Assembly: GCA_963514005.1 (NCBI GenBank)
Contig: OY740806.1
Location: forward strand, 26,040,001 to 26,104,000
DNA length: 64,000 nucleotides
Origin: Raja brachyura
Lineage: Eukaryota
Direction of reading: 5' to 3'
This document shows, piece after piece, positions 4,401-62,633 of this stretch. The notes beneath the pieces were generated by a model, which saw nothing but the letters and a program-made list of their open reading frames with translations, had not been told where the DNA came from and did no database searches. Both the position numbers and the translations under genes were made by a program. Numbering within the stretch: position 1 is the stretch's first letter; every line of letters begins with the position of its first letter.

Positions 4401-4644
4401 TGAAATATGCACATATATTTTAACATCATACATTTAAGAGTGGCTTAATTTTTCAGAGGCCATCTGTGCCAATTAAAAAAAAAAAACATTTAATTAGAAC
4501 TAGTCTTTCGATGTTCTTCTAAAAACTGAGTAAACCGTGAAAAAAATGAAGGGATGTGTGGTGGGATGGTCAGCATCAGAGAAAGACCTTGGGCTTAAAC
4601 CAATATGGTATTTAGTAAGTTGTTACTAATCAAGAATCTGTCAA

Positions 4645-4808
4645 GGAAGGAACTGCAGATGTGTAAGAAGTAACTGCAGATGCTGGTTTAAATGGGTGAC
4701 GTTTCCGATTGAGACCTAACAAGGGTCTCGACCTGAAACGTCACCCAATCCTTCTCTCCAGAGATGCTGCCTGTCCCGCTGAGTTATTCCAGCATTTTGT
4801 GTCTCTCT
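4645..4808. mobile_element. Short fold-back PLE-derived element inserted in a CR1
   Basis: gggtgacgtttc...gaaacgtcaccc inverted arms; flanked by AAGAATC(T/A)GTCAA at 4632-4644 and 4809-4821 (12/13). Confidence 0.75.
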
Positions 4809-4821
4809 AAGAATCAGTCAA

Positions 4822-8599: not shown

Positions 8600-9660
8600 A
8601 AAGGCCCGTTGACCTGACGGCGTTGCTGGGTTGGACTTGGACTCCAGAATCTCTCTGTGCATCAATGTTGTTGAGGCACCTGCAATTAATTGTTTACTTT
8701 CTCCTTGTATCTGACCTCCCAAAATGCAATACCTTACCACATTAAACTCCACAGGCCAATTCTCTTCAAATATCTGTTGCTGATCTATATCCTGCTGAAT
8801 CCTTTGGCAGATTTCCTTATTGTCTGCAATTCCACCTATGTTTGTGTCATCTGCAAAGTTAATAACCAAACCATATACATTTATGTCCAAGTCATATGAC
8901 AACCACAGAGGTCCCAGCATAGATCCTTACGGAATTCCACTGGTCATGGAACTCCACCCAGAATGCCACCCTTTCACACATGCTCTGTCTTCCTTGAGTA
9001 AACCAGTTCTGAATCAAAATGACCAACAGTGCAGAGAAGATTTACAAGGATGTTATCAGGACGTGAGGGCCTGAGCTATCAGGAGAGGATGGGCAGGCTA
9101 CGAATGAGGGATAATCTTATAGAGGTGTATAAGATCATGAAAGGAATAAATAAGGTAAATGCCCGTCTTTTACCAAGGATAAGTGTATCAAGAACCAGGG
9201 GACATAGGTTTAAGGTGAGGGGAAAGATTTAATAGGAACCCGAGGGGCCACATTTTCACACAGAGGTTGGTGAGTGTATGGAACCAGCTGCCAGAGGAGG
9301 TAGTTGAGGCAGGTACTATAACAGCATTTAAAGGGTATTCAGACGAGTACATGGACAGAAAAAGTTGAGTGGGATATGGGCCAAATGCGGGCAAGTGGGA
9401 GTAATGTAGGGTATCTTGGCCAAAGGGCCCATCACCAGAGATCTCATGTATCTTAACCTTCTGGATCAGCCTATCATGAGAGACTTTATCAAATGCCATA
9501 CTAATCTCCATGTAGCGAACATCCCCTACGCTACCCTAATCAGTCATCTTTGTCGCCTCCTCAAAATACCCATTCAAGTTTATAAGATATGATTTGTCCC
9601 ACATATAGTTGACTGTCCACAAGTACCAATTCTCTACCCAATGTGAGTAATTGACATTTG
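8600..9660. mobile_element. Nested CR1 fragments: minus-strand RT remnant interrupted by a plus-strand CR1 3' end (about 9028-9420)
   Basis: Minus: NFADDTNIGG, AFDKVSHDRLIQKVK. Plus: QRRFTRMLSGREGLSYQER...RTRGHRFKVRG. Confidence 0.8.
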
Positions 9661-14875: not shown

Positions 14876-15030
14876 ACATTATTTAATGACTCATCCCTTT
14901 GTGGGATCTTGTGTTACTAACTAACTGGCAGCTTTATCATTGACAACACTTAAAAGTTGGTAATTTTTACGATACATTGGGATACCTGACACAATCAATG
15001 TAACCATTCACAGGGAACAAGCTAAGAATA

Positions 15031-15211
15031 GTAAGGAACCGTAGATGCTGGAATCTTGAGGAAAACACAAAGTGCTGGAGGAACTCAACCAGTCAGGCAG
15101 CATCTGTGAAGGGAATGGGCAGGCGGCGTTTCTGGCCAGGAGCCTTCTTTTGTGTAAAGTCCGAAATGTCACCTGTCTATTCCCTCCACAAATGCTGCTT
15201 GACTTTGTGTT
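15031..15211. mobile_element. Old fold-back PLE-derived element
   Basis: agtcaggcagcatctgtgaagggaatgggcagg versus cctgtctattccctccacaaatgctgcttgact inverted arms; aagctaa(g)aata on both flanks. Confidence 0.6.
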
Positions 15212-15496
15212 AAGCTAAAATAAATATACTCTGACCACAAAGCTAAGTGTAAAATGTAACAAAATGCATACTGAAATTTCTTATTGATGCCTGTGAATGC
15301 AGTAGTAATGCGCTTATTACAGAACATTTTATTATTAAACATTTTTCAATGCGGCTTAACAGGCCCATAAAAATATGTTGATAACTAAGAGGGTGGTGGG
15401 AATATGGAATGAGCTGCCAGAGGAGGTAATTGAGGCAGGCATTATAACAGCATTTAAAAGAGATTTGGACAGGTACATGGCTAGGAAATGCTTAGA

Positions 15497-16470
15497 GGAC
15501 ACAAAGTGCTGGAGTAATTCAGTGGGTCAGGCAGCATCTCTGGAGATAAAGAATGGGTGACGTTTCGGGTCGGGACTCTTCTTCCGACTGAAAGTAGGGG
15601 ATGGGAGGGGAAGGTGAAGAGCAGAAGGTGAGAAACCTATCAGGGCCTCAGGCAGGGCGGTGCCTGGTAGATCCATTGTTGGCTCGAGAAGGTGTGATCT
15701 CAAGAGAAACAATGAGGAGAATTATGGAACTGGTAAAACAACTAGGGAGGAGAAATGGGGCAAGGAGAGAGGGGGAGGGGAAGGGAGTATGAGATGAAGT
15801 GACTTAAAATGAGATAATTCAATGTTCAATTGGGTTGTAAGCTGCCCAAGCAAAATATGTGGTGCTGTTCCTCCAATTTGCTTGTGGCCTCACTCTGGCA
15901 ATAGAGGAGGCCAAGGAGAGAAAGGTCAGTATGGGAATTGAAAGGAGAGTTGAAATGGCTGGCAACCAGGAGATCCCGTAGGTCTAGGCGGACCGAGCAC
16001 AGGTGTTCAGTGAAACGGTCACCAAATCTACGTTTAGTCTCGTCCATGTACAGGAGCCCACATCGGGAACATCGGATGCAGTAGATGAGGTTAGAGGAGA
16101 TACATATGAACCTCGGTCTAACCAGAAGGGATTGTTGGGGTCCCTGGATGGAATGAGTGAGGAAGTATAAGGACAGGTGTTACATCTCCAAGATGTGTTT
16201 AGATTGTTTAGTTTGGAGTTGACGGGAATGTCGGGGGATAATGTGTTGGATGCAAAACAACGGACATCTCCTATGGTTGCAGGAGAATGTACCTGGGCAG
16301 GCTGGGTGGGAAGGGATGAATGAACCAAGGAATTGCGAACAGAGTGGTCCCTGCGGGAGGTGAAAAGGGGTGTAGAGGGGAAGATGCGTTTAGTGATGTT
16401 TAGATGTGTTTAGTTTGGAGTTGACGGGAATGTCGGGGGATAATGTGTTGGATGCGAAGGCTGCTGGGGT
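15497..16470 (-). mobile_element. Penelope-like retroelement 3' portion (Zn-knuckle linker, GIY-YIG endonuclease, 3' terminal repeat); defective
   Basis: Minus strand RCNTCPYTSS then, after a frameshift, NLIYCIRCSRCGLLYMDETKRRFGDRFTEHLCSVR...VASHFNSP...KLEEQHHIFCLGSLQPN; followed by the same terminal sequence found in the short copies. Confidence 0.9.
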
Positions 16471-16619
16471 GAGAGACTGCAGAGTGTGGAGAGAATTCCC
16501 TGAGCATCCACTCTACCCGTCAGGCCTTTCACATAGAAATAAGTTCAATTCAATCCAACAGTCCTTCCTTGCTCCCTGGAAATATCCTCTCCCCATCCAC
16601 TTTATCCAGGCCTCTATCA

Positions 16620-17490
16620 CAGGTAGATAGGGTTGTCATGAAGGCATTCAATTCATTGGCCTGTATCATTCGGGGTATTGAGGATATAAATTGGGGTTGG
16701 ACACAAAGAGCTGGAGTAACTGAGCGGGACAGGCCGCATCTTTGGAGAGAAGGAATAGGTGACGTTATTATGTTACAGTTGTACAAGACGTTGGTGAAGC
16801 CACATCTGGCCGCATTCATTTTTTGTCACTCTGCTATAGGAAGGATGTTGTTAAGCTGGAAAGAGTGCAGAAAAGATTTTTGGGGGTGTTGCCAGGACTC
16901 GTGCTTGAGTTGAAGGCAGAGGCTGAGCATGAGCCTGAGAGGTGTATAAGATCTTGATGAAAATTGATCGGGTAAATGCAGTCTTTTACCCAGGGCAGGG
17001 GAAGCAAGAACCATAGGACATTGGGCAGAGGGGAAAGATCTAATAGGAACCTGAGGGGCAACTTTTTCCACACAGAGAGTGGTGGGTATATGGAACGAGC
17101 TGCCAGAGGAGGTAGTTGAGGCAGGTGGTATAACAACATTTGAAAGACATTTGAACAGGCGCATGGATAGGAAAGGAAAAGAGTGATATGGGCCAAAGGC
17201 TGATCAATGGGACTAGTGTAAATAGGGCTTCATGGTCGGCATGGGGAAGTTGGGCTGTTGTTTTCGTGCTGTATAACTATGAATACAGTCTTAGCCTCTC
17301 CTTATAGATCAAGCCCTCAAGTCCTGGCAATATCCTCGTAATTCTCCTCTGCACTCTTTCCAGTTTAATGGCATCTTTCCTATTTCAAGGTGACCAGAAT
17401 TGAACACAATACTCCCAAGTGCGATCTTAAGATCTTGTACATCTGTATCAAAACATCCCAACTTCTATACTCAATTACCTGACTGATGTA
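16620..17490. mobile_element. CR1 fragments (+ about 16620-17285, - about 17295-17490) with a PLE end inserted at about 16699-16765
   Basis: QVDRVVMKAFNSLACIIRGIE...LQLYKTLVKPHL; CR1 3'UTR. Confidence 0.8.
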
Positions 17491-21470: not shown

Positions 21471-22285
21471 AGAAGGAGACCTTCCCTGTCCTGATCCTGC
21501 CTAACCATTCCAGACCACCAACGTGGTTCACTCTTAATTTCTTGAGATACCACCCTTCTGTAAATGAATATATGTTTAATGGAATCACTTTACATCAGTA
21601 AAACTCGAGTACATCTGGCAGTGAACCTCAGCAACTGTGGGAAATAATGATGAACAGAAAGAGGCATGAGTTACTGCTTGGGTTAATCCCAAGGCCTCAG
21701 CTGAAAGCCTGATCTACTACAACCAGTTCTAACCAAAACCACAAGAATCCACTCAAAGGCAGTTACTCAATTCATTCAAATGAACATTTTGCCTCATTCT
21801 TAGATAAATTGTGGTACACTTTAGTTATTCACATACTCCAGTACATTAATTCTGGAAAAGCTGCACTCACTGCCCTAACATTTCTATTGTCCGACTACTT
21901 AAAAAAACACCATACTCGGGTCATATATTCAAAGCACGAGGTTTCACCAAAAATCCGAACTACTGTGATTTTCCCAGTGAAAAGTCGTGAAAACAGTGTT
22001 TTTTAAAACTTCTACAACACAGGATTCTAAAAAATGTTTCATAAATATCCAAAAAGGTATGTTCACTGGTGGAGATTATATATGATTGGAAGATCTGTTG
22101 AACTAAATTAGCTCAAATTTAAATGGACAATACTAAAATATGAGAATGTTACCTCATTTTTATTTATAAACACACAAAGTTGGATTGGAATGAGACTCTG
22201 GTTTGGCCTTGCGATGTGTTTCATCTGGAACTTTCAACAAAGCATCGCCTTCTTTGCTGGAAAGCACACACCCAAAAGAACCTCC

Positions 22286-22478
22286 GTGTAGGAAGAATCT
22301 GCAGATGCTGGTTTACACTGAAGATAGGCACAAAATGCTGGAGCAACTCAGCGGGACATGCAGCACCTCTGGATAGAAGGAATGGGTGACGTTTCGGGAT
22401 GAGACCAGACTTCTTCAGGAGAAGGGTCTCGACCCGAAACATCACCCATTCGGTGCTCCAGCATTTTGTGTCGATCGT
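22286..22478. mobile_element. Fold-back PLE-derived element with tail on the left arm
   Basis: Inverted arms aatgggtgacgtttcggg / cccgaaacatcacccatt and cacaaaatgctggagca / tgctccagcattttgtg; degenerate 13-bp flanking repeat at 22273-22285 and 22479-22491 (11/13). Confidence 0.8.
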
Positions 22479-22544
22479 CAAAAAAACCTTCAGAGGCAAT
22501 GGTTACAGGACCAATTCCCACATCGACATCTCAGCGAAGCTGTT

Positions 22545-23560: not shown

Positions 23561-24209
23561 TGATCTGATATTTCCTTGAGCACAGAAGATTTAATGAGGA
23601 TCTGATTGAGATGATAAAAGCATTCGATGGGTAATATCAGATAAACTGTGCCTCACAACATTTGGACAGGTACATAGATAGGATTAGAGGGACATGTGCC
23701 AAAAGCAGACAAGTGGGAATAGAGTCGAAGGGCCTGTTTCCACGCTGTATGACTCTGGCTCTCCAGTAACTTGCCTACCACAGATGTTAGGCTCACTGGT
23801 CTATAGTTCCCTGGCTTTTCCTTGCAACCCTTCTTACCAAGAGTCACAACATTAGCACCCTCCGCTCTTCCAACACTTCAGTCGTGTCCAATGGTGATTA
23901 GTATATCTCCGCTGAGAGCCTGCATTTTCATCTCTGCCTTCCCACATTGTTCTCGGATACATCTGGTTCACATAATGCTATAATCACCATCAATGGTGCT
24001 AAAGTGGAAATCAAGAGTCAAGAGTGTTTTATTGTCATTTGTCCCAGAGAGAACAATGAAATTCTTACTTGCTGCAGCACAACAGAATATGTAAACATAG
24101 TACATAAACAAGAGAAAAAAAGTTCAGTGTGTGTGTATATATTATATATATATTACACATACTCAAAAAAACAAAGAATTATAGTGCGATAATAGTAAGT
24201 CTGTTGTAG

Positions 24210-24309
24210 GGTACACAAAAGGCTGGAGAAACTCAGCGGGTGCAGCGGCATCTAAGGAGCGAAGGAGATAGGCGACATTTCGGGTCGAGACCCTTCTTCT
24301 TCAACACAT
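24210..24309 (-). mobile_element. Young short PLE-derived insertion (100 bp)
   Basis: 11-bp TSD GTCTGTTGTAG at 24199-24209 and 24310-24320. Confidence 0.9.
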
Positions 24310-24767: not shown

Positions 24768-25131
24768 GGGTTACACAAAAAGCTGGAGAAACTCAGCGGG
24801 TGCAGCAGCATCTAAGGAGTGAAGGAGATAGGCGACGTTTCGGGTCGAGACCCTTTTTCAGACTGGTCAGGGATCAGGGAAACGAGAGATATAAACAGTG
24901 ATATGGAGAGATAAAGCAAGAACAATGAGTGAAAGATATGCAAAAAAGTATTGGTGATAAGAAAAACAGGCCATTGTAAGCTGTTTCTGGTGTGAAAATG
25001 AGAAGCTAGTGCGACTTGGGGGGGGGGGGGGAGATGGTGAAGGAATGTCAGGGCCCGAGGGCTGAGGGAGAGGTGGGGGGGTGGGGGGAAAGGAGCAGTC
25101 TGGGTTAACAGAATTGAGAAAATTCAATGTT
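24768..25131 (-). mobile_element. Young 5'-truncated PLE (ORF end, 3'UTR, terminal motif; 364 bp)
   Basis: Perfect 14-bp TSD TAGAAAGCATACTG at 24754-24767 and 25132-25145; minus strand begins with the ORF end NIEFSQFC-stop. Confidence 0.9.
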
Positions 25132-26541: not shown

Positions 26542-26814
<273 letters not shown>

Positions 26815-26881: not shown

Positions 26882-26975
26882 AAGTAGACAAAAATGCTGG
26901 AGAAACTCAGCGGGTGCAGCAGCATCTATGGAGTGAAGGAAATAGGCAACGTTTCAGTCCGAAACCCTTCTTCAG
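26882..26975 (-). mobile_element. Short PLE-derived insertion in the intron after the first kinase exon
   Basis: 10-bp TSD TGATTGGAAT at 26872-26881 and 26976-26985; element 5' end falls exactly at CTGAAGA. Confidence 0.88.
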
Positions 26976-27840: not shown

Positions 27841-27904
27841 GTCATGGAGACCAAAAATATGCTGTATCTTGTAACTGAGTATGCCAAAAATGGAGAGATC
27901 TTTG
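27841..27904 (+). CDS. sik2: SIK2 internal coding exon (equivalent to exon 3; 64 bp, phase 0/1)
   Basis: Encodes [21 protein letters not shown] plus the G of Asp. Acceptor ctctttcttgtgttcgcag; donor GTAAGT at 27905. In frame with the previous exon; too short for the ORF track. Confidence 0.96.
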
Positions 27905-30494: not shown

Positions 30495-30690
30495 GGAAAC
30501 AATGAATTGCAGATGCTAGTTTACAAATCATGTCACAAAGTGCTGGAGTAACTCAGCATCTCAGGCAGCACTTCTGGAGAACATGGCTAGGTGAAGCTTC
30601 GGATTGGGATCCTTCTTCAATGTCACCCATCCATGTTCTCCAGAGATGCTGCCTGACCCGCTGAGTTACTACAGCTCTGTGTCTATCTTT
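30495..30690. mobile_element. Older fold-back PLE-derived element
   Basis: gtaactcagc..tcaggcagca..tctggagaacatgg versus ccatgttctccagagatgctgcctga..gctgagttac. Confidence 0.75.
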
Positions 30691-33600: not shown

Positions 33601-35660
33601 ATGTAAACAATTCCAGCGACATTGCTTCCTGCCAGTGATGCTTTGGATGACCGATGATTGCGTAAAGATCTCCAGCTGACATGTTTAATGCAGTAAAATG
33701 CATAATTCCAGATAGTTTCTTTCATCCTTTTCTGTAATTAGATAGTTTGTTACCTTGCAGTGACACACTGATTACAAATATTCTTGTTAAAGTATGCATA
33801 GCAATCAGTGGGAAGATAAGTGTATTTGTGTGGAAAGTGTGGTGTGATTGTAAAAGTTTAATAAAGAACTCGATCATGACTTTGCTGAGCATACTCAGCT
33901 GCTCTCATGCCACCTCTCATCTGTCACCTCCAACCTTCATTTGATTAGAATTGGGTTCATATTTGGGGTGATAATGCAGTTTTCTGTGAAGCCAAAATGT
34001 CAAACAATTTTTCCAACTGATTATGTTTCAAACCTTTGATTTCTTTAGGGCATGTTCTAATTAAAACAGGCAGATTTCCATCCCTAAAGAACATTAGTAA
34101 ATCTTATGGGTATTTTCAGCAACTCAGCACTTTTGGGATCACCATTATAAATTCTAGCATTTTATTTCCAGATTTATTAAAATTGAATTAATTGTTCTCC
34201 AGCCTCTGGACTATACAACCATACCCTGATACTGATTAATGAAATACTGGCAAGAGTGTTGGCTCCTGGAAAGTCACTGCTCTGCGTGAATCATCGCCTG
34301 CAGAGGGGTAAAGCAGCAACGTTTGAAGAGGGGAGGTGGGAGTTGGTGGGTAAGTGTTGGAATGAGACTACCTCTTGTCATTTCAACATTTGCTTATCAT
34401 CCTCGTAAAACTCTCTTCATTCAACCTTTTTGTTTGTCAAAACGAGGGTCATTGTCTACGGCCTTGACGTCATGAACACATCTCCTTCAGCATCAACTAC
34501 TGGCAGTGGACGGTGAGATTTGCTTTAGGAATGGAGAAGTACAAAACTCTCCATTAAAAATGACTAAAATTTACATTAAAGAGGTTGATTAAAAATTACC
34601 TATTTAATGTTATCTGCAGAACAAAGTCCGTCCACATGTACAATAGCAGCAAATGTAATTGCCCATCATTAGATCACTTCAGCTGGAGCAGCTGAGAGCT
34701 GTAAATCAATGCATGTCTCTGCTCAATGTGTGGTGTTTACTGCACAAAATTCTCTGTGGCAGTTGTCAAAGGCTGAGAGAAGCTGAGTTTTGATGGCGTG
34801 ATGTTAAAGTAAATTAGTAAGGAGGTGACAACGGATAAAATGCTGCAGTTTCAGCTTCGGAGCATTTGAAATATGCTGAAATGTTGGAGCAGCTGTAAAT
34901 ACAGGAAGTGCGTTTTTTCCTTGGCTCCATTGGACGCCTGTGGTCTAAACTGCAAATCTGGCACTAACCCAACAGGTGGATTTGGGCTCTGGGGCGGTCT
35001 CACCAAGGAAACCAGAGTGAAAACTTTTGCCAGATTATTATCAAAGCTTTTTTGTTCCAAAGTACTAAATTAGTATAATTATACAAATTAATTCAAAACT
35101 GAATTGAGGAAAAATATGTATAGTAGTTAAAGCGTGGACCAGATTCTTAATTGAGGTAATTAGTATAGAGGGCATTTAAAACAAAGGAAATGTGTTTCTG
35201 TGCTGCAAAATTCCTCATGCAGAAATTTGTTCTTGGCTTTTCTAGTGGATTTGAGTAATTAACCGTGCTGATCTTTAAGCAGACCTAATCCCTCCACAGC
35301 CATCGCTTCACTCTTAATATACCTGTTGAATCTCTTGTGATTTTCATTTATCTTGCCCACTAGATCCATCTCTTGCCCACTTTTCCTCTCCTGATTTCCC
35401 TCTTAAGTGTACTCCTACATGTTTATACTGGTCAAGGGATTTACTTGATCCTGACAGGTTTATTCTGATGAATGCCTCATTTTTCTTGACTAGGGCCTCA
35501 GTATCTCTTTTCTACCAGGGTTCACTAAACAGTCTGGGTGTCCCAGTTAATATTAGAAAAGCTAAAATCTCCCACTAATACTATCCTATTATTCGTGCAT
35601 CTATCTGCGACCTCCCTATATATCTGCTCTTCTAATTCCCGCTGACAGATAGTTTTCTGA

Positions 35661-35750
35661 TGAAGGGTCTCGACCCGAAACGTCGCCTATTCCATTGCTC
35701 CATAGATGCTGCCTCACCCGCTGAGTTTCTCCAGCTTTTTTGTCTGACCG
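35661..35750 (+). mobile_element. Short PLE-derived insertion with canonical CTGATGA core
   Basis: 10-bp TSD AGTTTTCTGA at 35651-35660 and 35751-35760; motif CTGATGA-A-GGGTCTCGACCC-GAAA-CGTC at 35657-35684, whose first four bases overlap the TSD. Confidence 0.88.
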
Positions 35751-37241
35751 AGTTTTCTGAAAAGGTCAACAAGAGGATTTCTTGAGGGCAGGGCCATGGC
35801 CATTGTCTACATGGACTTCAACAAGGTCAAGAATCTGAATTCCTGCCCGCTGCAACATCTCCTTAGCCATGTATTCATCTTGCCTGTACCTCTGTTTCTA
35901 CCCTCACTAGCATGACACCAGTACTAATTCAGAGGTTACTACCCTTGAGGTCCTGCTTTTTAACTTCTTTCCTAACTCCCTATATTCTCTCGCAGGACCT
36001 CAAATTTTTTCCATTGGCATGATCTCCACAATGACTCTGGCTGCCCACCTTTCTTACAATCTGCTCAAATGTAAAAGTAAAACAAGAACCAGTGATCACA
36101 ACTCTGCTTTTTATGATAGCCATCAATAGAAATAAGTCTGACCTTAGGGAAGGGAACTAAATTGGAATATGGCACATTTCAGCATTATTAGTCAGGTAAA
36201 TTGGGAGTGATTGGTGTTGGGGAAAGGCCACATCTGACAGGCGGTAGTCGTTTAATGGCCAGCTGATCAGATTTCGGGACCGCCATGTTACAGTAACGGT
36301 AAGGGATAATGATGGCAAAGTAAGGTAACTAAGAGGTTGTAAATTTAGTCCAAAAAAAGGAAGTATCCATAAGGTTTAAACAAAATGAAATCATGCAGGG
36401 CCCTTGAGGAATATAAAGCTAGCAAGAAAGAACTCAAGCAGGCAATTAGAAGGGCCATATGGGGCCAGCAAGTGGAGTTTGAGATTAAGCTAGAGGATGT
36501 GTTGTGGCTCTTGAAGAACATTAAGGTGGAAGTATCCCCAGGGCATAATGGGATCTATTCCTGGTTAATGAAAGAGGCAAGAGAGGAGATTGCAGGGGCC
36601 TCGATGAAAATCTTTGCACCATCTATAGCCCCAGGCGAGGTCTTGGAGGACTCAAAAGTAGCTAATGTTGTATAGCAAGGGAGGTAGAGATAATTCAGGA
36701 CATTATAGACTGGTGAACATGACAAGAGTGGTGGGGAAACCTTTGGAGAGGATTCTCCGAGATAATATTTACTTCCATTTAGAATAGAATGGGTTAGTGA
36801 GGGACATTCAGCATGGCAGGCCATGTCTTACAAATTAGATTGAGTTTTTTGAGGTGGGGACAAAGGTGGCTGATGAGGTTAGGGCAGTGGATGTTGTCCA
36901 CATGGATTTTAGTAACGCATTTGATAAAGTCCCTCATTATAGGCTGATCCAGAAAATTAAGATGCACGGATCCACAGTGATTTGGGCATTTGAATTCAGA
37001 GTTCTGCAGGGATCTGTGCTGGGATCCTGAGATGCTGGGACCTCTTTGTTTCTGATACATATAAATGACTTGTTGATTTAAATGGTTGGTTAGTAAACTT
37101 GCAGATGACTCCAATTGATGGAGTTGCAGACAGTGAGGATGGCTGTCAAAGTTTACAGCGGAATATACAGTAGATCAGCTACAGAAAAGGGCGGAGAAAC
37201 GGCAGGTGGAGTTTATTCCGAGCAAGTATGAGGTGTTACAC

Positions 37242-37471
37242 GGGTTACACAAAAAGCTGGAGAAACTCAGCGGGTGCAGCAGCATCTAAGGAGCGAAGGA
37301 GATAGGCGACGTTTCGGGTCGAGACCCTTCTTCAGACTGGGTCTGAAGAAGGGTCTCGACCCGAAACGTCGCCTATCTCCTTCGCTCCTTAGATGCTGCT
37401 GCACCCGCTGAGTTTCTCCAGCTTTTTGTGTAACCCTCGATTCTCCAGCATCTACAGTTCCTTCTTTAACA
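37242..37471. mobile_element. Very young palindromic PLE-derived retroposon (230 bp): 96-bp perfect inverted repeat plus 35-nt tail
   Basis: Arms 37242-37337 and 37341-37436 are exact reverse complements with loop TGG; tail 37437-37471; perfect 14-bp TSD ATGAGGTGTTACAC at 37228-37241 and 37472-37485. Confidence 0.95.
37338..37375 (+). ncRNA. Putative minimal type I hammerhead ribozyme motif
   Basis: UGGGU-CUGAAGA-A-GGGUC(UC)GACCC-GAAA-C-GUC/GCCUA. Core boxes CUGAnGA and GAAA, GUC triplet (predicted cut after 37370), helix II hairpin, palindromic ACGU in place of helix III, and a possible 5-bp helix I with two G-U pairs. Confidence 0.65.
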
Positions 37472-38064
37472 ATGAGGTGTTACACATTGGGAGATCGAAT
37501 GGTGGGGAGAGTATATAGTTAATGGCATGACTCGGGTCGATGATGAAGGCCCACAATTCAGCTTGGGTCATATTGCTCCAGTGCAGTGCGTTATCCAGGG
37601 CAAAGTGATTTGCTTATATTACCACATACGTCATGAGCTTTTAATTGATGGCAATATACATGCAGAAGAACGAGCCTTTTCTTCTGCTTATCAGCAAATG
37701 TCTCCAGGTTTGGTTGACTCGGTTCCGAACAGAATATTTCCCAGAGCTGGGGTTAGGTCTAGGTCGGCTATGATTGGGTTAGGTTCTATGAATTTTTAGA
37801 TTTGGATTGTATTTCAACAGGACCCTGTGAAATTATGATCACAAACCTCCAGCCAGAATAAACCCTTCCACCACAACCATCTGTCTTATATGAGTAAACC
37901 AATTCTGATTCTAAAACAGCCAAATTACTGTGGATCCCATGCATCTTAATCTTAGTTGGACCAATGTAGGCCAATGTCCTATTGAACTCTTGAAAATATT
38001 GCAATGTTTTTTGAAAAAGTTTTGACATTCTGAATTAATTTAACACTTTTTCCCTATAATAATA

Positions 38065-38375: not shown

Positions 38376-41300
38376 ATTGCGTAGGGCCCAATGCATTGTA
38401 ATTGAACCAGAGGTGTCTAACCTTTGCAGGAAAATCCTGTTCTGTCTGGTTGTAAATGGGCAAGGCAGGCTCACGTGTTCCTGCAGATGCATTTATCAAT
38501 TAACAACTGGCATTTCCATCGTATTCCAGAGTTGTGAGCATCAAACTGTTAAGATAATGAGAGGTACAAAATTGAATAAATGCTGCACTGTCCGAGAGAT
38601 GATGTTTTATGCATGAGACCATAAGCGTAGACTGTGTCGTCAGGTGGATGTCAGACCCGAAGTTACTATTTTGAATAAAAGTGCTGGAATCTCCAGAATG
38701 TTGGCCAGTCATCTCACGCACACTCATCATTACTTAGAAAACAGTAATGTTTTCCCGATGGCAATGGACTTGAATTGGCTATCTGCTTACGCATTACATG
38801 TTGAGTGCCATAACCAAGCATTACTTGTACACCACATGAATTGTATGTTATAACATTTGCTTTTCACACATTGGCTGCCCTGTTTCCTATATCTCAATAT
38901 TGCCTATATTTCTAAAGAACTGCATTAGATGAAGACACATTGGTAAGATCTGAAAGGCATCACAGAAACGAAAGCTTCGCGTTTCTTCCACATTCATGCG
39001 TCAAAGCAATTAATAGCAGTATTTTGCAGTTCCTGTTTTCCACTGCTCAGGCTGTGGCATCAAACATGTCACATGCATCTCGATCCAAGATATCAGCTGA
39101 TTCCCTGTGTGAGTCAGCAGTAGGTGGAGTCCAGTTAAAATTAGCCGTGAGATAGTTGGGAGCAGAGACTGTGACTCAGTAACCAGTTTGACATTCCACC
39201 ACCACCTCTTTTAATTAAACCAATATGCATTATGTCTTAAATGTATTATGGCCTTCAGCAAAATGTCAGGCATACCAATGTGGAGCACAATACAAACCAA
39301 GACAAAGGTGCGATTTACAAAGATTTATATTTAAGCATACAGGAGCCATGAGGTTGAGCTGACAAGCCCCTGCAGCACAGGTACGACATGTCCTGTGGCT
39401 GGGTTGTCCAGAGAAAAGAGATAATGCCGTGATGTAAGAGGCACTAGTTCACGACAGAGATGAGAAGACGTTTCCTGACACAGAATGTGGTGAACGCTTG
39501 ACTTTCTTTGCCCAACAATGGAGCCTCAGTCATTGAACACATTCAAGGCAGAAATGAATAGATATTTTTATTGTTCATTGCAAGGATGTGGGCATCACAA
39601 GCTGAGCCAGTATTTAATTGCCATTGAGAAGATGGTGGTGCACTTCCTTCTTGATCTGCCGCAGTCCTGGAGGTGTGTGTATTCCCACAATGCTGTTATG
39701 GCGGGAGTTCCTAGATTTTGACACGGCGATAGTGAAACTGTAAAAAAATAATTCCAAGTCAGGACAGTGTGTCCACTGTCGACAACCTCCCGATGGTGGT
39801 GTCCACGTGCTGTTGCAGCACAGATATAGTGGGCCGAAGAGCCTGTTCCTGTGTTGTACTTCTCTATGTTCTTCTGACCTGATGATTGAAGGAAGGTAAT
39901 TCATTGATGAAGCAGCTGAAGATGGTTGGGCCTAGGACAACTGAGGAATCCTGCAGAGATGTCCTGTGGCTGCCTTGATAGATCTCCAACCACCACAACC
40001 ATTTTTGTTTGTTCTTGGTAATATTCCAACCGGTGAAGGGTTTTCTGAATTTTTTGGATGTGAAGGAAATCAGGGATATACAGTTAGTGCAAAAATGTGG
40101 TGCAGAGGAAAAGATGAATATGATTTTATTAAATGTCAGAGTAGTCAATTGGGGCCAAATGCCTTGCTGCTTCTTATTGATGACATGTATCTGGTGGCAA
40201 CTTCGGTCCTCCTACCTACAAAGATATGTTATTTGGTTATGGTTTGAAGAAGTTGTTCACGAGATTCATGTTAAATCTTTCTCCTCTCACTTTAAACGTC
40301 ACACTGCTTGGATTAAACTCCATCTGCTATTTCTCTGCTTATTTCTATAGTTGATCATTATCCAAATCCCGCTGTATATTTTAAAAATCTTCCTCACTGT
40401 CCGCAACTCCAGCTATTTTGGCGTCATATGCAAAATTACTAACCAACTCATTGAAGTCATATATATATATATATATATATTATCAAAGCCCAATACACAG
40501 TGTAAAAATGTGAGGATATTGGAGCCTGCTAAAATGTGTTGTATTACAGGTAGTCTTGTATTTCAATGTGCACACAGTACTACTTCACACATTTGGCATA
40601 CACGGCCGACAATTTTCATCTAATATTTTTGAAAATTCATAGTTTTGCTTTATTTTAGAAATCATGATCGCTTTTGTATTGCCAGGAAAGAAAGTTTTAA
40701 GGCCTGTTGACCCCAGTCAGAGAAACAAAGGAAATAAAATCCTCTGCCATTTCAATATATTGGTTTTGTTCACGTGCCAATCCTCAAATCTGAAGGGAAG
40801 AGCGATGCTGAGATTTTCATCTGTTTGCTGACAATAGCAGGGGAAGAGAAGTCGGCAAGGCGCACACTGAAGGCCCATGATATATAGATCAGCACTTAAA
40901 TACACCAAGGTCTGCAAACATATTGACTTTGACCCTTTTGAAACAACTTTGGAACAAGCTGTTGTGTTACTTCACATTAGGAAAGTGATGCACTGAGACA
41001 ATATATTTCACTCTGCAGTTGCGGATTTTTGTATTTGTAAAAATTAACACTTGTTTATATGTTTCAAAGGATGGAGTGTTAAGCTGTAATGTGCTTCAAA
41101 ACAACGTTTGTTTACAACGAGAGTCTGGAGTCAGAGCAGAGGAAAAACAGTGCAAGTAGAGGAGAAAGGGGCGTAGATAATAGACAGTATAGAGCGGAAG
41201 GGAAAAAAGGTGTTTTAATTTTCTTTTGTTTTCCTTCATTTTCGGAAACTTCGTGCTGTAGAAGCTTTCTGCTTCACTGTGCAATTCAGTTGCAAACGGC

Positions 41301-50600: not shown

Positions 50601-50692
50601 CATTGTCTTTGCTGCTTTTTTTGAAGCTCAGCCTGTCATTTTCTGATATAGTTAATACCACCTCTGATAAACCTACGCTCTTACGCCTCAGA

Positions 50693-50853
50693 AGGACATA
50701 AAGTACTAGAGTAACTCAGCAGGTTAGCCAGCATCGCGACCCGAGACGTCACCTATCAATGTTCTCCAGACATGCTGTCAATACCAGCTGAGTTACTCCA
50801 GCACCGTTCCTTTCGTGTATTAACCAGCAACTGCAGTTCTTTGTTTCTACTGC
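50693..50853. mobile_element. Fold-back PLE-derived element with tail on the right
   Basis: gagtaactcagc / gctgagttactc arms; flanks TA(C/T)GCCTCAGA at 50682-50692 and 50854-50864. Confidence 0.7.
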
Positions 50854-53800
50854 TATGCCTCAGATCATCTGGCGCTGATACCTTCATCCACGTCTTTGTT
50901 AACATTATAGCTGACAAGCTTTGTCTGTGTTCTAACATGCATTTCCATGCCTTGCTCTTTGCTACATGGTTCCTGGTGAAGTACCTCTTCATTTTTAATT
51001 TATTTCTCACCCTTATTTACAAACTTAATCTTGTCAATATGGTGTCCTCTAGCCCCAAATTCTGATGAAATGCCTGTTCTTTAATTTTCCTCATCCCTAA
51101 ATGTAATCACAGTATTTGTGGCTGGGCCTTTGGGTGGCAAACTCACAAATTCTAGAATTCTTTCCCTCTTTGCTTCTCATTTTAAGATGTTTGTTAAAAT
51201 CTTTCCTTCTTTGATCAAGCCTATGACAATCTAATGCAGTTCAGCATCAAACTGCAGCTTAACAATGCTGTGAGGCTTCTCTCTAAGTAAAAGCTGCTGT
51301 TAGAGTTTCAACTGTAACACATCATACAAAGAACACAAATGCACTCCGTTTTTATCTCAACTAACATAACACATGCGCACCTCTGTGTACATGTAGAAAT
51401 ATACACAATGTAGAGCAATCTGCCTTGAATTTTGTTGCATTTTCAGACTAAATATGGATGGCTATTACTTTAAATCTTCCACCATGGTGACACTGCAGAG
51501 CACTGGCTTCCTGCAGCTCTCTAAAGTTGTGTTATGCAGCCAGCAGGGTGTAAATGGTTCCATCTGCCACAGACCAGCCCCCTGGCCATGAGAAGGCAAT
51601 CACACTGCAGCGTTGACAGCTTGTGTGCGTCATCAGCACTGCTTCGAAAATTTTCTACTTCAGATAGCAGCTAACAAGCTTTTAGTTCTCACCTGTTGAT
51701 GGCAACATCAGACAAAAGCTTTCCAGTGAGAGGGGCAAAGGCCATTAAAGCTGTCATTTTATTACTTTCCTGCATTCAAGAGGAATTCTTCCAATTTACA
51801 ATAAATATATCTCCAGTTCAGCAGGGAGTTGGACAGATTTCACCCCCATACATCTATGGTCTTTTGAAATTGCACAATCATAATAGCTACCGAGCACACT
51901 TCATCTCTTTAGGAGCTAACGAGGCATTTCAATGCACATATATTTGCATCCCAAGGAGCCAGATCACATTTTAAATGAGAATCTCTCTGATTAAAATGAT
52001 GGAAATCAAAGTAAATTGACAAAAGACACAATTATAAATCAGCAACCATCTCATTTTTCAAGCCTGTTGTGAAATTTGAAAGCATGGATGTGACATTGAA
52101 CATCTACAGATTCCACCTCAAACGGGCTGAGTTCTGAAACAATCTGATTTTTTTTAAACAAGATTTATTTCAGCACCATTGTACTGACATTTGTGTTCAG
52201 TGTAACACTGGCTGATTAATGTTGTGTTCTCAATGTTGGCTGCAGATGTTGACTTCTGGATTTTGCCATTTACTAAAGTACTGTTTATTTGGTGTAACAT
52301 TGTGATATAACAGCAGCTAGTTATATAGTCATACAGCATGGAAACAGGTCCTTTGGCCCTTCTCATGTTGCAGCCAAGATGCCCCATCTACGCTAATCCC
52401 ACCTGAACATGTTTGGTCGATATTCCTTTTAACTTTTCCAATCCATGTACCTGTCCAAATGTTTTTTTTAATATTGCTATAGTACCTGCCTCAACTACCT
52501 CCTCTGGCAGCTCATTTAATATACCCCACCACACTCTCTGTGAAAAAGTTTTCTCTCAGGTTCATATTAAATCTTTCCCCTTTCACCTTAAGCCTATGTC
52601 CTCTGTGTCTTGATTCCACTCCTTTTGGCAAAAGACTCTGTGTGTTCACCCATCACTATTCCCCTCATGATGTTATACACCTCATGCCTGAATGTTGTCT
52701 AGACACTCTGCATCACAGCTACAGAGACCTGGTTTCGATCGTGACCTCCATTGTTGTCTGTGTGGAGTCTGCATGTTCTCCTGCATGGGTTTCCCTGCAT
52801 ACCCTGGTGTACTCCCACATCCCATATGCAAGTTGGTATATTAATGATTCACTTCCCCTGTGTGTGTAGATGGTGCTTGGTTAATTAGGGGAATTGATGG
52901 GCATGTCACTGAGGAATGAGTTACCGGAAATAAGTTGGGGAATGGATTGAAGGGTTGCTTTGAGAACCGGCAATGAGGTTGGGAAGTGTTATAACACTTG
53001 CAATTTTCCACTTTCCCCTCGATGTATTTTCAGGCTGATGATCTGTTTTCTGCTTTTCTGCTACGTATTCCTCGACGCTGAGACCAAGCCACAGGCAAAT
53101 TGTTCTACTTTGTTGATTCATGGCCGAGTTGAGTGCTACTCACACTCGACACGCATGTCCAATGCACAGGAGCACACATTCGGAGTTGATCTGGCATTAA
53201 ACTGTTCAATTGGTACAGGCAAGCTTTAGGATCTAGGATATTTCTATTGCATCAAGCATTCATTCCAGCAAGGTATCCTCAGGGCTAATCCAGTTTTGGC
53301 TTGGTTCTGTTCTGCTAAATTCTGTAGGACACCATGTAATAATAAATCAAGATGACACATTAATCCCCAGTGCAGGTCAGGAAGCTCAGGAGCTGAGCTG
53401 AGCAGGTTCTGGTGTGAGTTCAGACCTGGCCAGCAGAATTTTGGATCTATTCATGTTTATAGAGAGTTCCCCAAATCTACCTTAATGAATCTCTTTTTAA
53501 AAAAAAAAAGAAATCGTTATTCCTTTGTGAAAATGTATCTGAAATTGAAACCACATTCTAATATAGAGGGGTAGCAATCAATTAAATCTGACATTGCGTT
53601 CTACTTGTGCAGGAAGGAACTGCAGATGCTGGTTTACATCAAAGATAAACACAAAATGCTGGAGTAACTTAGCGGGACAGGCAGCATCTCTGGATAGGGT
53701 AGTGGTAAAAATATCTTTTCAGGTAATCTTACACAAACTCATACAAAAGGCATGGTGTTCTCATTCTCCCCAACGCTATCCCAGTGTAGAATTTATATTG

Positions 53801-55885: not shown

Positions 55886-56937
55886 TTTATTTCCTCAGTG
55901 TAAATGATCAAATGAGGTTCCTTCTGTTCATTGTAAGCAAAACCACGTCATGATACTGAGGAGCAGTTAATTTTAAACAGTTAAATGCTGGAAACACTCC
56001 AAGGGTCAGGCAGCATGTTTCACGAGGGAGACCCGCATGATTTAGATTTCGGACATGAAACATTGAATCTTCCTCTTTCCTCAGTTTCTGTCTGACATGT
56101 TGAGTATTTTTTGTTTTTATTTATGATTTCCAGCATCTGCAGTTTTCTTGTTTTTTTTTGATGAATTAATCCTCTTGTTCTAACCAAAAGTAGTTGTAAA
56201 TCAATATCAAACATGGTCATTATGACATTGTTTATTTGTGGACGCTTGCTGTAAGCATATTGACTACCTCATTCCCTGCATTAGAAACCTTTAAAAGCAT
56301 CACATGAATAGTCCACCACCACTTGGGTACGTCCAGAGGTGGTGACACTATGAAAATGCAAGTTCAGTTCATTTGCCGAACCAGGGAGTTCCGTGCATGT
56401 CCTTACTCTGTTTTATGTAAGTGCTTATCCATTTAAAATAAGCACATCAATGCTTGGTAAAGTAGGGAGATAAAGGATTTGCACATGAGCGCATTAACTG
56501 CTCACATGCTAAATGTTTGCTGTGCTGTTTCAAGGCCATAGTGAAGTGATTTCATGCTTGTGCATTTGTTCATTTCTTAGTCTATCTGATAAACCTTTCA
56601 CTATATATTGTCGCTGTGTAACATACAGGAGTTTAGATTTGATTTAAAATCTTTCCAACAAATGACTTTGTAGCATTTATTCCTCATTGTTGATATTTAG
56701 TCTTGTCCGAGGAATGCTGGGTGTTGTACTCAGGAATATCCTGCTTGCATTAATGTCACCCAGCTGTGTGTGGAATGAGTAATGAGTCTCCACTGCAATT
56801 AACCAGGCCGCATGTTGAGACCCTTAAAGCAGAGGTGCCTCACAATGGTTCCAGCATTGCTGTTTTGCTGCTTTACCCTCGTGTGTCTCACTACCAGTAG
56901 ATTATTTAGAAGGTGAAACTGTCCTTAAAAGTTTATA

Positions 56938-58465: not shown

Positions 58466-58675
<210 letters not shown>

Positions 58676-61280: not shown

Positions 61281-61367
61281 GGTTACACAAAAAGCTGGAG
61301 AAACTCAGCGGGTGCAGCAGCATCTAAGGAGCGAAGGAGATAGGCGACGTTTCGGGTCCAGACCCTT
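61281..61367 (-). mobile_element. Young short PLE-derived insertion
   Basis: Near-identical to the 37242 left arm; flanking repeat CTTCCAC at 61274-61280 and 61368-61374. Confidence 0.85.
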
Positions 61368-62034
61368 CTTCCACCCCTGACCGACACCTCCGATTTACGC
61401 CCCTGGCTCCAATGAATTGGATCAGCCTTCCATGTGGGTCATTTTGCTGAAGTCCATTTCGACTAAATCAAGTGCAGCGCCCTCAGATATATATTTAATT
61501 ATATCTTCAAAAAACTCAAATTAAATTAGTTGGAATGGTTTCCCACAAGCAATATCATATTTATTATCCCTGATCAGTCTCTGCCTTTCTGTGCAAATTG
61601 ATCCTCCCTCTTATTCGTAGAGTCGTAAGTGGCCAACTCACCGCCCCGAATCGTGGGGCTTCAATCACCACCAAGATGTTCCAGCTAAACTAGTTGGATT
61701 TGCCTGCATTTGGCCCATATCTCTCTAAACCTTTCCCATCCACGTGCCTGTCCAAATATCTTTTAAATGGTGTTATTGTAATTGCTTCAGCTACTACTTC
61801 TGGCAGCTCGTTCCATATACCCTCCCCCTTGGTATGAAAAATCTTTTCCCTTTCATCATAAACCTATGGCCTCTAGATTCCCCTCCCCAGGGAAAAAGAC
61901 TGCGTTTTACGCTTAATAAGCCTCTCGTGATTTTGTACACCTCTATAAGATCTCCCCTCAGGTCAGAGTTCCCATGGGAATGTATCTCTGCTGGGACTCC
62001 CACAATTTCTTTTCCAGTTTCCCACAGTATCTTT

Positions 62035-62544: not shown

Positions 62545-62633
62545 GAGTAGTCTCGACCCGAAGCGTCACCTATGTCCTTCGCTCCTTAGATGCTGCTGCA
62601 CCCGCTGAGTTTCTCCAGCCTTTTGTGTACCCG
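62545..62633 (+). mobile_element. Short PLE-derived insertion
   Basis: 14-bp flanking repeat AGAAATATT(C/A)ATTG at 62531-62544 and 62634-62647. Confidence 0.85.

Follow-up and report, generated by a model that had tools for sequence, protein, structure and literature searches.

A 230-nt fold-back in an intron of a SIK-like kinase gene is a real and recent insertion of two head-to-head fragments of a Penelope-like element (PLE), and it is likely to be a by-product of PLE integration rather than a new system. The insertion lies in the window, i.e. the whole stretch of 64,000 nucleotides analysed here, to which all coordinates refer, and is composed of the following parts together with its target site duplication (TSD):

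37228..37241, no strand: left copy of the 14-bp TSD, ATGAGGTGTTACAC; present as a single copy in a contig of organism B
37242..37340, minus strand: inverted, 5'-truncated and tail-less copy of 99 nt, including the 3-nt "loop"; 97/99 identity to 24768-24866
37341..37436, plus strand: direct, 5'-truncated copy of 96 nt, delimited by arm comparison
37437..37471, plus strand: one-sided PLE "tail" of 35 nt; homologous tails are found on older copies
37472..37485, no strand: right copy of the 14-bp TSD, ATGAGGTGTTACAC; delimited by empty-site comparison with organism B

The arms (37242-37337 and 37341-37436) comprise 96 nt each, are 100% complementary and are separated by 3 nt. A first-pass annotation of this DNA had described arms of 96 nt without mismatch, a tail of 35 nt on one side and a TSD of 14 bp, all of which is borne out by the coordinates and the arm comparison, as well as a 3-nt loop. 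In the latter case, 3 nt do separate the arms, but these bases belong to the element: TGG is the reverse complement of the CCA which precedes the arm in a longer copy (24768-25129), and because of this match the left arm is taken to be 99 nt long. Judged from this comparison, the "loop" is the offset between two truncation points and not foreign sequence. The arm contains six CpG dinucleotides (o/e 0.88, with 0.36 for the whole window).

Contigs of four runs (X1, X3, X7 and X10) from four organisms, out of 21 runs, could be placed on window positions 36900-37800. The share of words was 1.00 for X1 (organism A), 0.80 for X3 (organism B) and 0.99 for a further run, X2. For X3, a single contig of 2730 nt joins 36900-37227 directly to 37472-37800 and contains the target once, which corresponds to an empty site. 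Since organism B is a close relative with an empty site and one target copy, the insertion is real and recent, in line with the earlier claim of a very recent event. The right-flank contigs of X7 and X10 start at 37472 or 37473 and are preceded by 26 or 51 unplaced letters, which agrees with an empty site without demonstrating one. For X1, which may be the same sample as the assembly, one contig consists of the left flank plus 22 nt of the inverted arm and another one of the tail plus the right flank, both with 0 mismatches. These outer junctions are in opposite orientations, and an internal inversion is therefore required. Its presence in organism A and absence from organism B make the locus usable as a marker; being one young copy among very many, it otherwise carries little weight.

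The host intron is repeat-rich, spans about 30.6 kb and is located between in-phase kinase exons on the plus strand:

27841..27904, plus strand: SIK-like kinase exon 5' of the host intron; best PDB match is SIK3
58473..58634, plus strand: SIK-like kinase exon 3' of the host intron; best PDB matches are MARK3, with SIK3 lower

Consecutive SIK-like exons on this strand are found at 26662-26778, 27841-27904 and 58473-58634. Based on such matches, the host gene encodes an AMPK-related, SIK-like kinase, with SIK2 as a candidate; SIK paralogues were not separated by the Atlas comparison. The earlier assignment of the insertion to a sik2 intron is borne out at the level of a SIK-like kinase, the flanking plus-strand exons matching SIK3 and MARK3 in the PDB. 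Judging by its repeats, the host may be a skate or ray. The immediate target of the 230-nt insertion is a decayed LINE RT remnant within this intron, presumably of CR1 type, in the region 36700-37500; related LINE fragments are located at about 8750-9590 and 40300-40460.

Sequence comparison identifies the arm as the 3' end, hammerhead included, of an EN+ Penelope-like family that is very abundant. A profile built from 15 window copies gave 32 matches, grouped as 24 loci in 64 kb, and 0 matches in the reversed window. In the four runs, 65,928-77,664 contigs per run could be placed on 36900-37800, with a summed depth over the arms of 2-5.6 million versus about 10 on the flanks in X1, a figure which is not a copy number. 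A 28-nt family pattern gave 0 matches in viral contigs and 0 in metagenome contigs. Most family copies in the window are monomers, five of which are young, tail-less and about 90 nt long (24209-24307, 26885-26975, 35656-35750, 61281-61371 and 62550-62632). Family TSDs measure 7-14 bp; those of 7-8 bp and one-mismatch TSDs of 11 bp are weak, since the TSD finder also matches at random sites (46/300 at 7 bp and 8/300 at 11 bp or more). Two further copies display element sequence upstream of the arm:

24768..25129, minus strand: sister copy (362 nt) from the same young subfamily, non-inverted and tail-less, with its own 14-bp TSD; displays upstream element sequence
15495..16400, minus strand: family member of greater age (79% over the arm) whose hammerhead end has a GIY-YIG remnant upstream; from sequence comparison, Pfam and Atlas

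While the 362-nt sister copy extends only to the last endonuclease codons, GIY-YIG remnants are found upstream of an arm-type 3' end in three older copies (15826-16122, about 48500 and about 790), and in the copies at about 790 and 48500 the endonuclease C-terminus is joined to the arm-type end. The remnant at 15826-16122, from an older subfamily, lies upstream of the 3' end and derives from a GIY-YIG endonuclease whose core contains two cysteines; it scores 0.96 to GIY-YIG clusters in the Atlas and 12.6 bits (E 0.17, below cutoff) with Pfam GIY-YIG. The cysteine pieces of the Neptune CX2-5CxxC linker are present as well, but they are split by a tandem duplication in this decayed copy, the decayed endonuclease region with its internal duplication covering 15495-16766 on the minus strand. 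By these linker cysteines, the family may be Neptune-like. A motif scan of the 64-kb window detected no RT-bearing copy. The initial identification of the arm as a Penelope 3' end is supported by the hammerhead core, the one-sided tail and the GIY-YIG remnants in older copies. MITEs and fold-back DNA transposons feature symmetric terminal inverted repeats and a fixed TSD length. An element of this kind was rejected in view of the one-sided tail, TSDs of 7-14 bp and the predominance of monomers.

Hammerhead cores were detected on both strands of the fold-back, as had been proposed:

37343..37370, plus strand: minimal type-I hammerhead core (CUGAAGA, bulged A, helix II, GAAA, CG, UC); descriptor scan, match starting at 37343
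37308..37335, minus strand: the same core with a helix I of only 2 bp; descriptor scan, match starting at 37335

With a strict descriptor, a core with a helix II of at least 4 bp and a CG helix III occurred in 0/20 shuffled windows, and Rfam models gave no hammerhead match on the insertion. Owing to the junction bases, the right-arm core could form a helix I of 5 bp, two of them G-U pairs, whereas the parent sequence offers 2 bp; this junction-derived helix (37338-37375) may reflect chance or a spliced template. On the minus strand, polypyrimidine tracts ending in CAG, one base before the hammerhead core, resemble 3' splice sites at 24862-24900 and 15587-15625, and in Drosophila Penelope an intron ends at helix I (PMC4209133). 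Visual inspection of the 362-nt copy gave no donor site to go with the acceptor-like AG, which leaves the idea that the junction bases come from a spliced template without support. The insertion RNA is predicted to fold with -213.5 kcal/mol (z -29; 0/200 shuffles as good), in agreement with the stable 96-bp hairpin claimed at first pass. MicroRNA families in Rfam matched only below the gathering score; such matches are uninformative because any long hairpin would give them, and a miRNA precursor was discarded as no family reached that score.

How the two arms came to be joined is best explained, with a probability of roughly 75%, by a dead-on-arrival head-to-head insertion in which short cDNAs, one primed by each nicked target strand, were fused where they had been truncated. 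The nicks, 14 bp apart, would have been made in trans by an autonomous partner with RT/GIY-YIG. One target strand would then prime at the outer initiation site, giving the arm with the tail, while the other strand would prime at the inner site, 35 nt upstream, giving the tail-less arm. Synthesis of both cDNAs would end a little beyond the hammerhead core, at roughly matching positions, and their ends would join, probably aided by the small imperfect palindrome GAC-CA-GTC, with the TSD resulting from repair. Once transcribed as part of the host gene, the predicted 96-bp hairpin would block the hammerhead fold, and it would probably be neutral or at most an ordinary editing substrate. An inner start site is indicated by the outer end of the left arm: the tail-less monomers at 24768, 61281, 24209 and 62632 have their 3' end at the same element position, as expected if RT starts there. 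GTTACAC, the last 7 nt of the TSD, recurs at positions 3-9 of the inverted arm (37235-37250) and could mark pairing of the primer end with the template near the inner start site; a match of this type was not seen in the other young copies in the window. The two-site reading, at the stated probability, is limited by an endonuclease link that comes from older subfamilies, by one G in the junction beyond what the micro-palindrome predicts and by the identity of the arms, which fits self-priming equally well.

Other fold-backs bear on this question. Head-to-head arrangements make up 7 of the 24 loci in the window, all with different junctions (model positions 11/5, 5/19, 3/3, 3/24, 1/1, 50/13 and 49/15, the last pair being weak with 15 and 18 bits). 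In all seven, partly as read by eye, the tail is on one arm only; diverged tails at 4660, 13546, 30504, 42437 and 50840 were missed by the strict tail motif and were read by eye. The six older fold-backs, from related subfamilies, are located at 4632-4821, 15030-15215, 22273-22489, 30497-30690, 50682-50864 and 55975-56150. Across four species, at least 956 highly varied joints were counted (15 of them listed), not including the junction of the present locus, which is identical to the reference.

The main alternative, though an unlikely one, is that the second arm arose by self-priming, i.e. that a single nucleic-acid strand folded back at the micro-palindrome and copied itself, a model favoured in PMC3846280. 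It would account for the 0 mismatches between the arms, and the imperfect palindrome GAC-CA-GTC is indeed present in the parent element at the junction point. Moreover, a junction one base shorter, with a 2-nt spacer, recurs in 12, 14, 6 and 12 contigs of the four runs (about 5-11 single-copy depths each). Self-priming is opposed, however, by the tail-less arm ending exactly at the end of independent tail-less monomers and by the unequal arm truncation in other fold-backs (e.g. 3/24, 50/13 and 5/19), which a simple hairpin copy would not give.

Quite improbable is the reading that the 230-nt unit belongs to a discrete, non-autonomous family, copied from a master which already held the junction; the first-pass annotation had raised the possibility of a mobilisable ORF-less family. 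The shared-junction check is largely against it, as the junction is shared by 0/6 other fold-backs in the window and the joints are very diverse; furthermore, the RT start region would be buried in the predicted 96-bp hairpin. Fold-backs thus mostly form anew at insertion. On the other side, pLTRs with built-in 5' palindromes are reported in PMC3846280, and among the 15 joints listed some of high depth occur in one species, at about 198x and 45x single-copy depth in X10 and about 60x in X1, depth being a rough guide. High-depth inverted joints limited to one or two runs are 37338>37433 and 37338>37396 (X10), 37337>37395 (X1) and 37275>37393 (X1 and X7). High-depth joints in single runs suggest that some junctions were amplified, possibly as fold-back subfamilies or arrays. 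As some of the 15 joints listed are of high depth, not every junction is a one-off.

Far less probable still is a function of the hairpin for the host, whether by keeping its own ribozyme inactive and so sparing the kinase pre-mRNA or by supplying substrate for ADAR/Dicer regulation. The masking part of this earlier claim stands as a prediction, the hammerhead-competent fold being about 64 kcal/mol costlier than the hairpin, and it is not vacuous on paper because the junction gives the right arm a 5-bp helix I instead of the parental 2 bp. Heavy editing is documented for Penelope repeats of lizards and for palindromic Harbinger repeats of frogs (PMC5625713). The protective part finds no support: single minimal hammerheads gave no in vitro cleavage (PMC4209133), and the Anolis hammerhead needs the protein of the element (PMC11167929). 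The predicted masking is probably moot, since monomeric hammerheads of this minimal type do not cut. In addition, the insertion is absent from the closest relative and is thus not conserved, and a non-inverted copy with an intact, unmasked core (helix I of 1 bp) lies at 35657 on the plus strand, sharing intron and orientation with the insertion.

Perfect palindromes are a known class of assembly artefact and no mismatch-free contig spans the exact centre of the fold-back among those listed, but the probability of an artefact here is close to negligible given the TSD with its matching empty site, both outer junctions in contigs, the word shares of 1.00 (X1) and 0.99 (X2) and an asymmetry (tail and 3-nt offset) that agrees with element biology.

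Returning to the two-site reading, a broader version can be formulated tentatively. The main mobile product of the family might be a "strong-stop" cDNA of 95-130 nt that begins at the two internal sites of RT initiation and terminates at one fixed position, the 5' boundary of the hammerhead (polypyrimidine-AG, acceptor-like); pairs of such cDNAs would join into near-perfect hairpins, and some junctions would be re-amplified as species-specific ORF-less families. We regard this as possible, yet doubtful. Seven of eight young 5' ends, read by eye in a small sample, fall within arm positions -2 to +13 (16 nt) at the hammerhead 5' boundary, with crude nulls giving P <= 0.0007 for the clustering. 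The top loose contig ends include 37338-37340 in all four runs, partly owing to variable upstream element sequence, and three young monomers display 4-5-nt microhomology (TCTGA, CTGA and GAAG) between TSD and hammerhead core. These data hint at a preferred cDNA stop at the hammerhead boundary, as a lead and not as a result. If the strong-stop reading is true, these genomes would record how PLEs integrate and would keep gaining new intronic dsRNA; if junctions are re-amplified, a head-to-head class would stand beside tandem retrozymes. The family hence outweighs the locus: it is abundant, recently active and present as TSD-bounded monomers and fold-backs, and the ends of its copies can separate two-site priming from self-priming, a step of PLE transposition which the papers cited call unresolved.

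Comparison with known systems places the insertion, by the sequence features tested (hammerhead, one-sided tail, inverted truncated copy, empty-site TSD and GIY-YIG remnant in an older copy), among EN+ PLE insertions. PLE insertions are described as typically containing an inverted 5'-truncated copy adjoining the 5' end, plus a tail of 30-40 bp at one of the ends (PMC8557442), with TSDs and palindromes at inverted junctions (PMC3846280), and Drosophila Penelope has variable inverted repeats and a 34-bp repeat (PMC2377424). With EN+ PLEs (Penelope/Poseidon, Neptune as well as Nematis), this insertion has in common the inverted 5'-truncated copy, the tail on one end, the TSD, the pLTR hammerhead and the junction palindrome (PMC8557442, PMC3846280). 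It differs in that no ORF lies between the arms and the truncation points are 3 nt apart, resulting in a near-perfect hairpin. The TSD of 14 bp also exceeds the 8-10 bp of the rotifer examples described there.

Opposite-strand hammerhead pairs are documented for metazoan PLEs, and the dispersed minimal hammerheads share with the present ones the bulged base 5' of helix II, a palindromic 15.2-16.2 and the lack of helix III (PMC4209133). In contrast to the pairs described there, about 100-700 bp apart, the cores are here separated by 7 nt; helix II has 4-5 bp in this family and helix I only 2 bp in the parent. No cartilaginous fish is named in the sections of that paper covered here; its supplementary alignments may include such motifs. 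In the Anolis carolinensis Poseidon element (PAc), the tail is bounded by two neighbouring RT start sites, both target strands are cut and extended, and a dimer is predicted (PMC11167929). Paired start sites bounding the tail and the cutting and extension of both strands, as proposed for the present insertion, are common to both, as is a hammerhead about 100 nt upstream of the start sites, whereas the present family may be Neptune-like by the linker cysteines of a decayed copy, and near the inner start site the element matches the final 7 nt of the TSD, initiation in PAc being reported as non-homologous.

Non-LTR retrozymes are likewise short, ORF-less, PLE-derived and of the type-I hammerhead kind, and were present in the one chondrichthyan sampled (bioRxiv 10.64898/2026.07.22.740005). 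Retrozymes are head-to-tail tandems, whereas the fold-back is head-to-head with both cores sequestered, and this class was rejected as it needs at least two head-to-tail hammerhead units. ADAR-substrate repeats (frog Harbinger and lizard Penelope) have in common an intronic self-folding repeat with long dsRNA, predicted in the present case, and other vertebrates commonly edit repeats of this type (PMC5625713); here, however, the palindrome arises at insertion and is not part of the family consensus. No description of fold-backs of this family in cartilaginous fishes was found in the literature covered, mostly open-access main texts. The earlier proposal of an under-described system is not supported, since the inverted truncated copy, the one-sided tail and opposite-strand hammerhead pairs all appear in PMC8557442, PMC3846280 and PMC4209133. 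The fold-back structure is already described for PLEs, and the present insertion is a young, near-perfect and ORF-less hairpin example.
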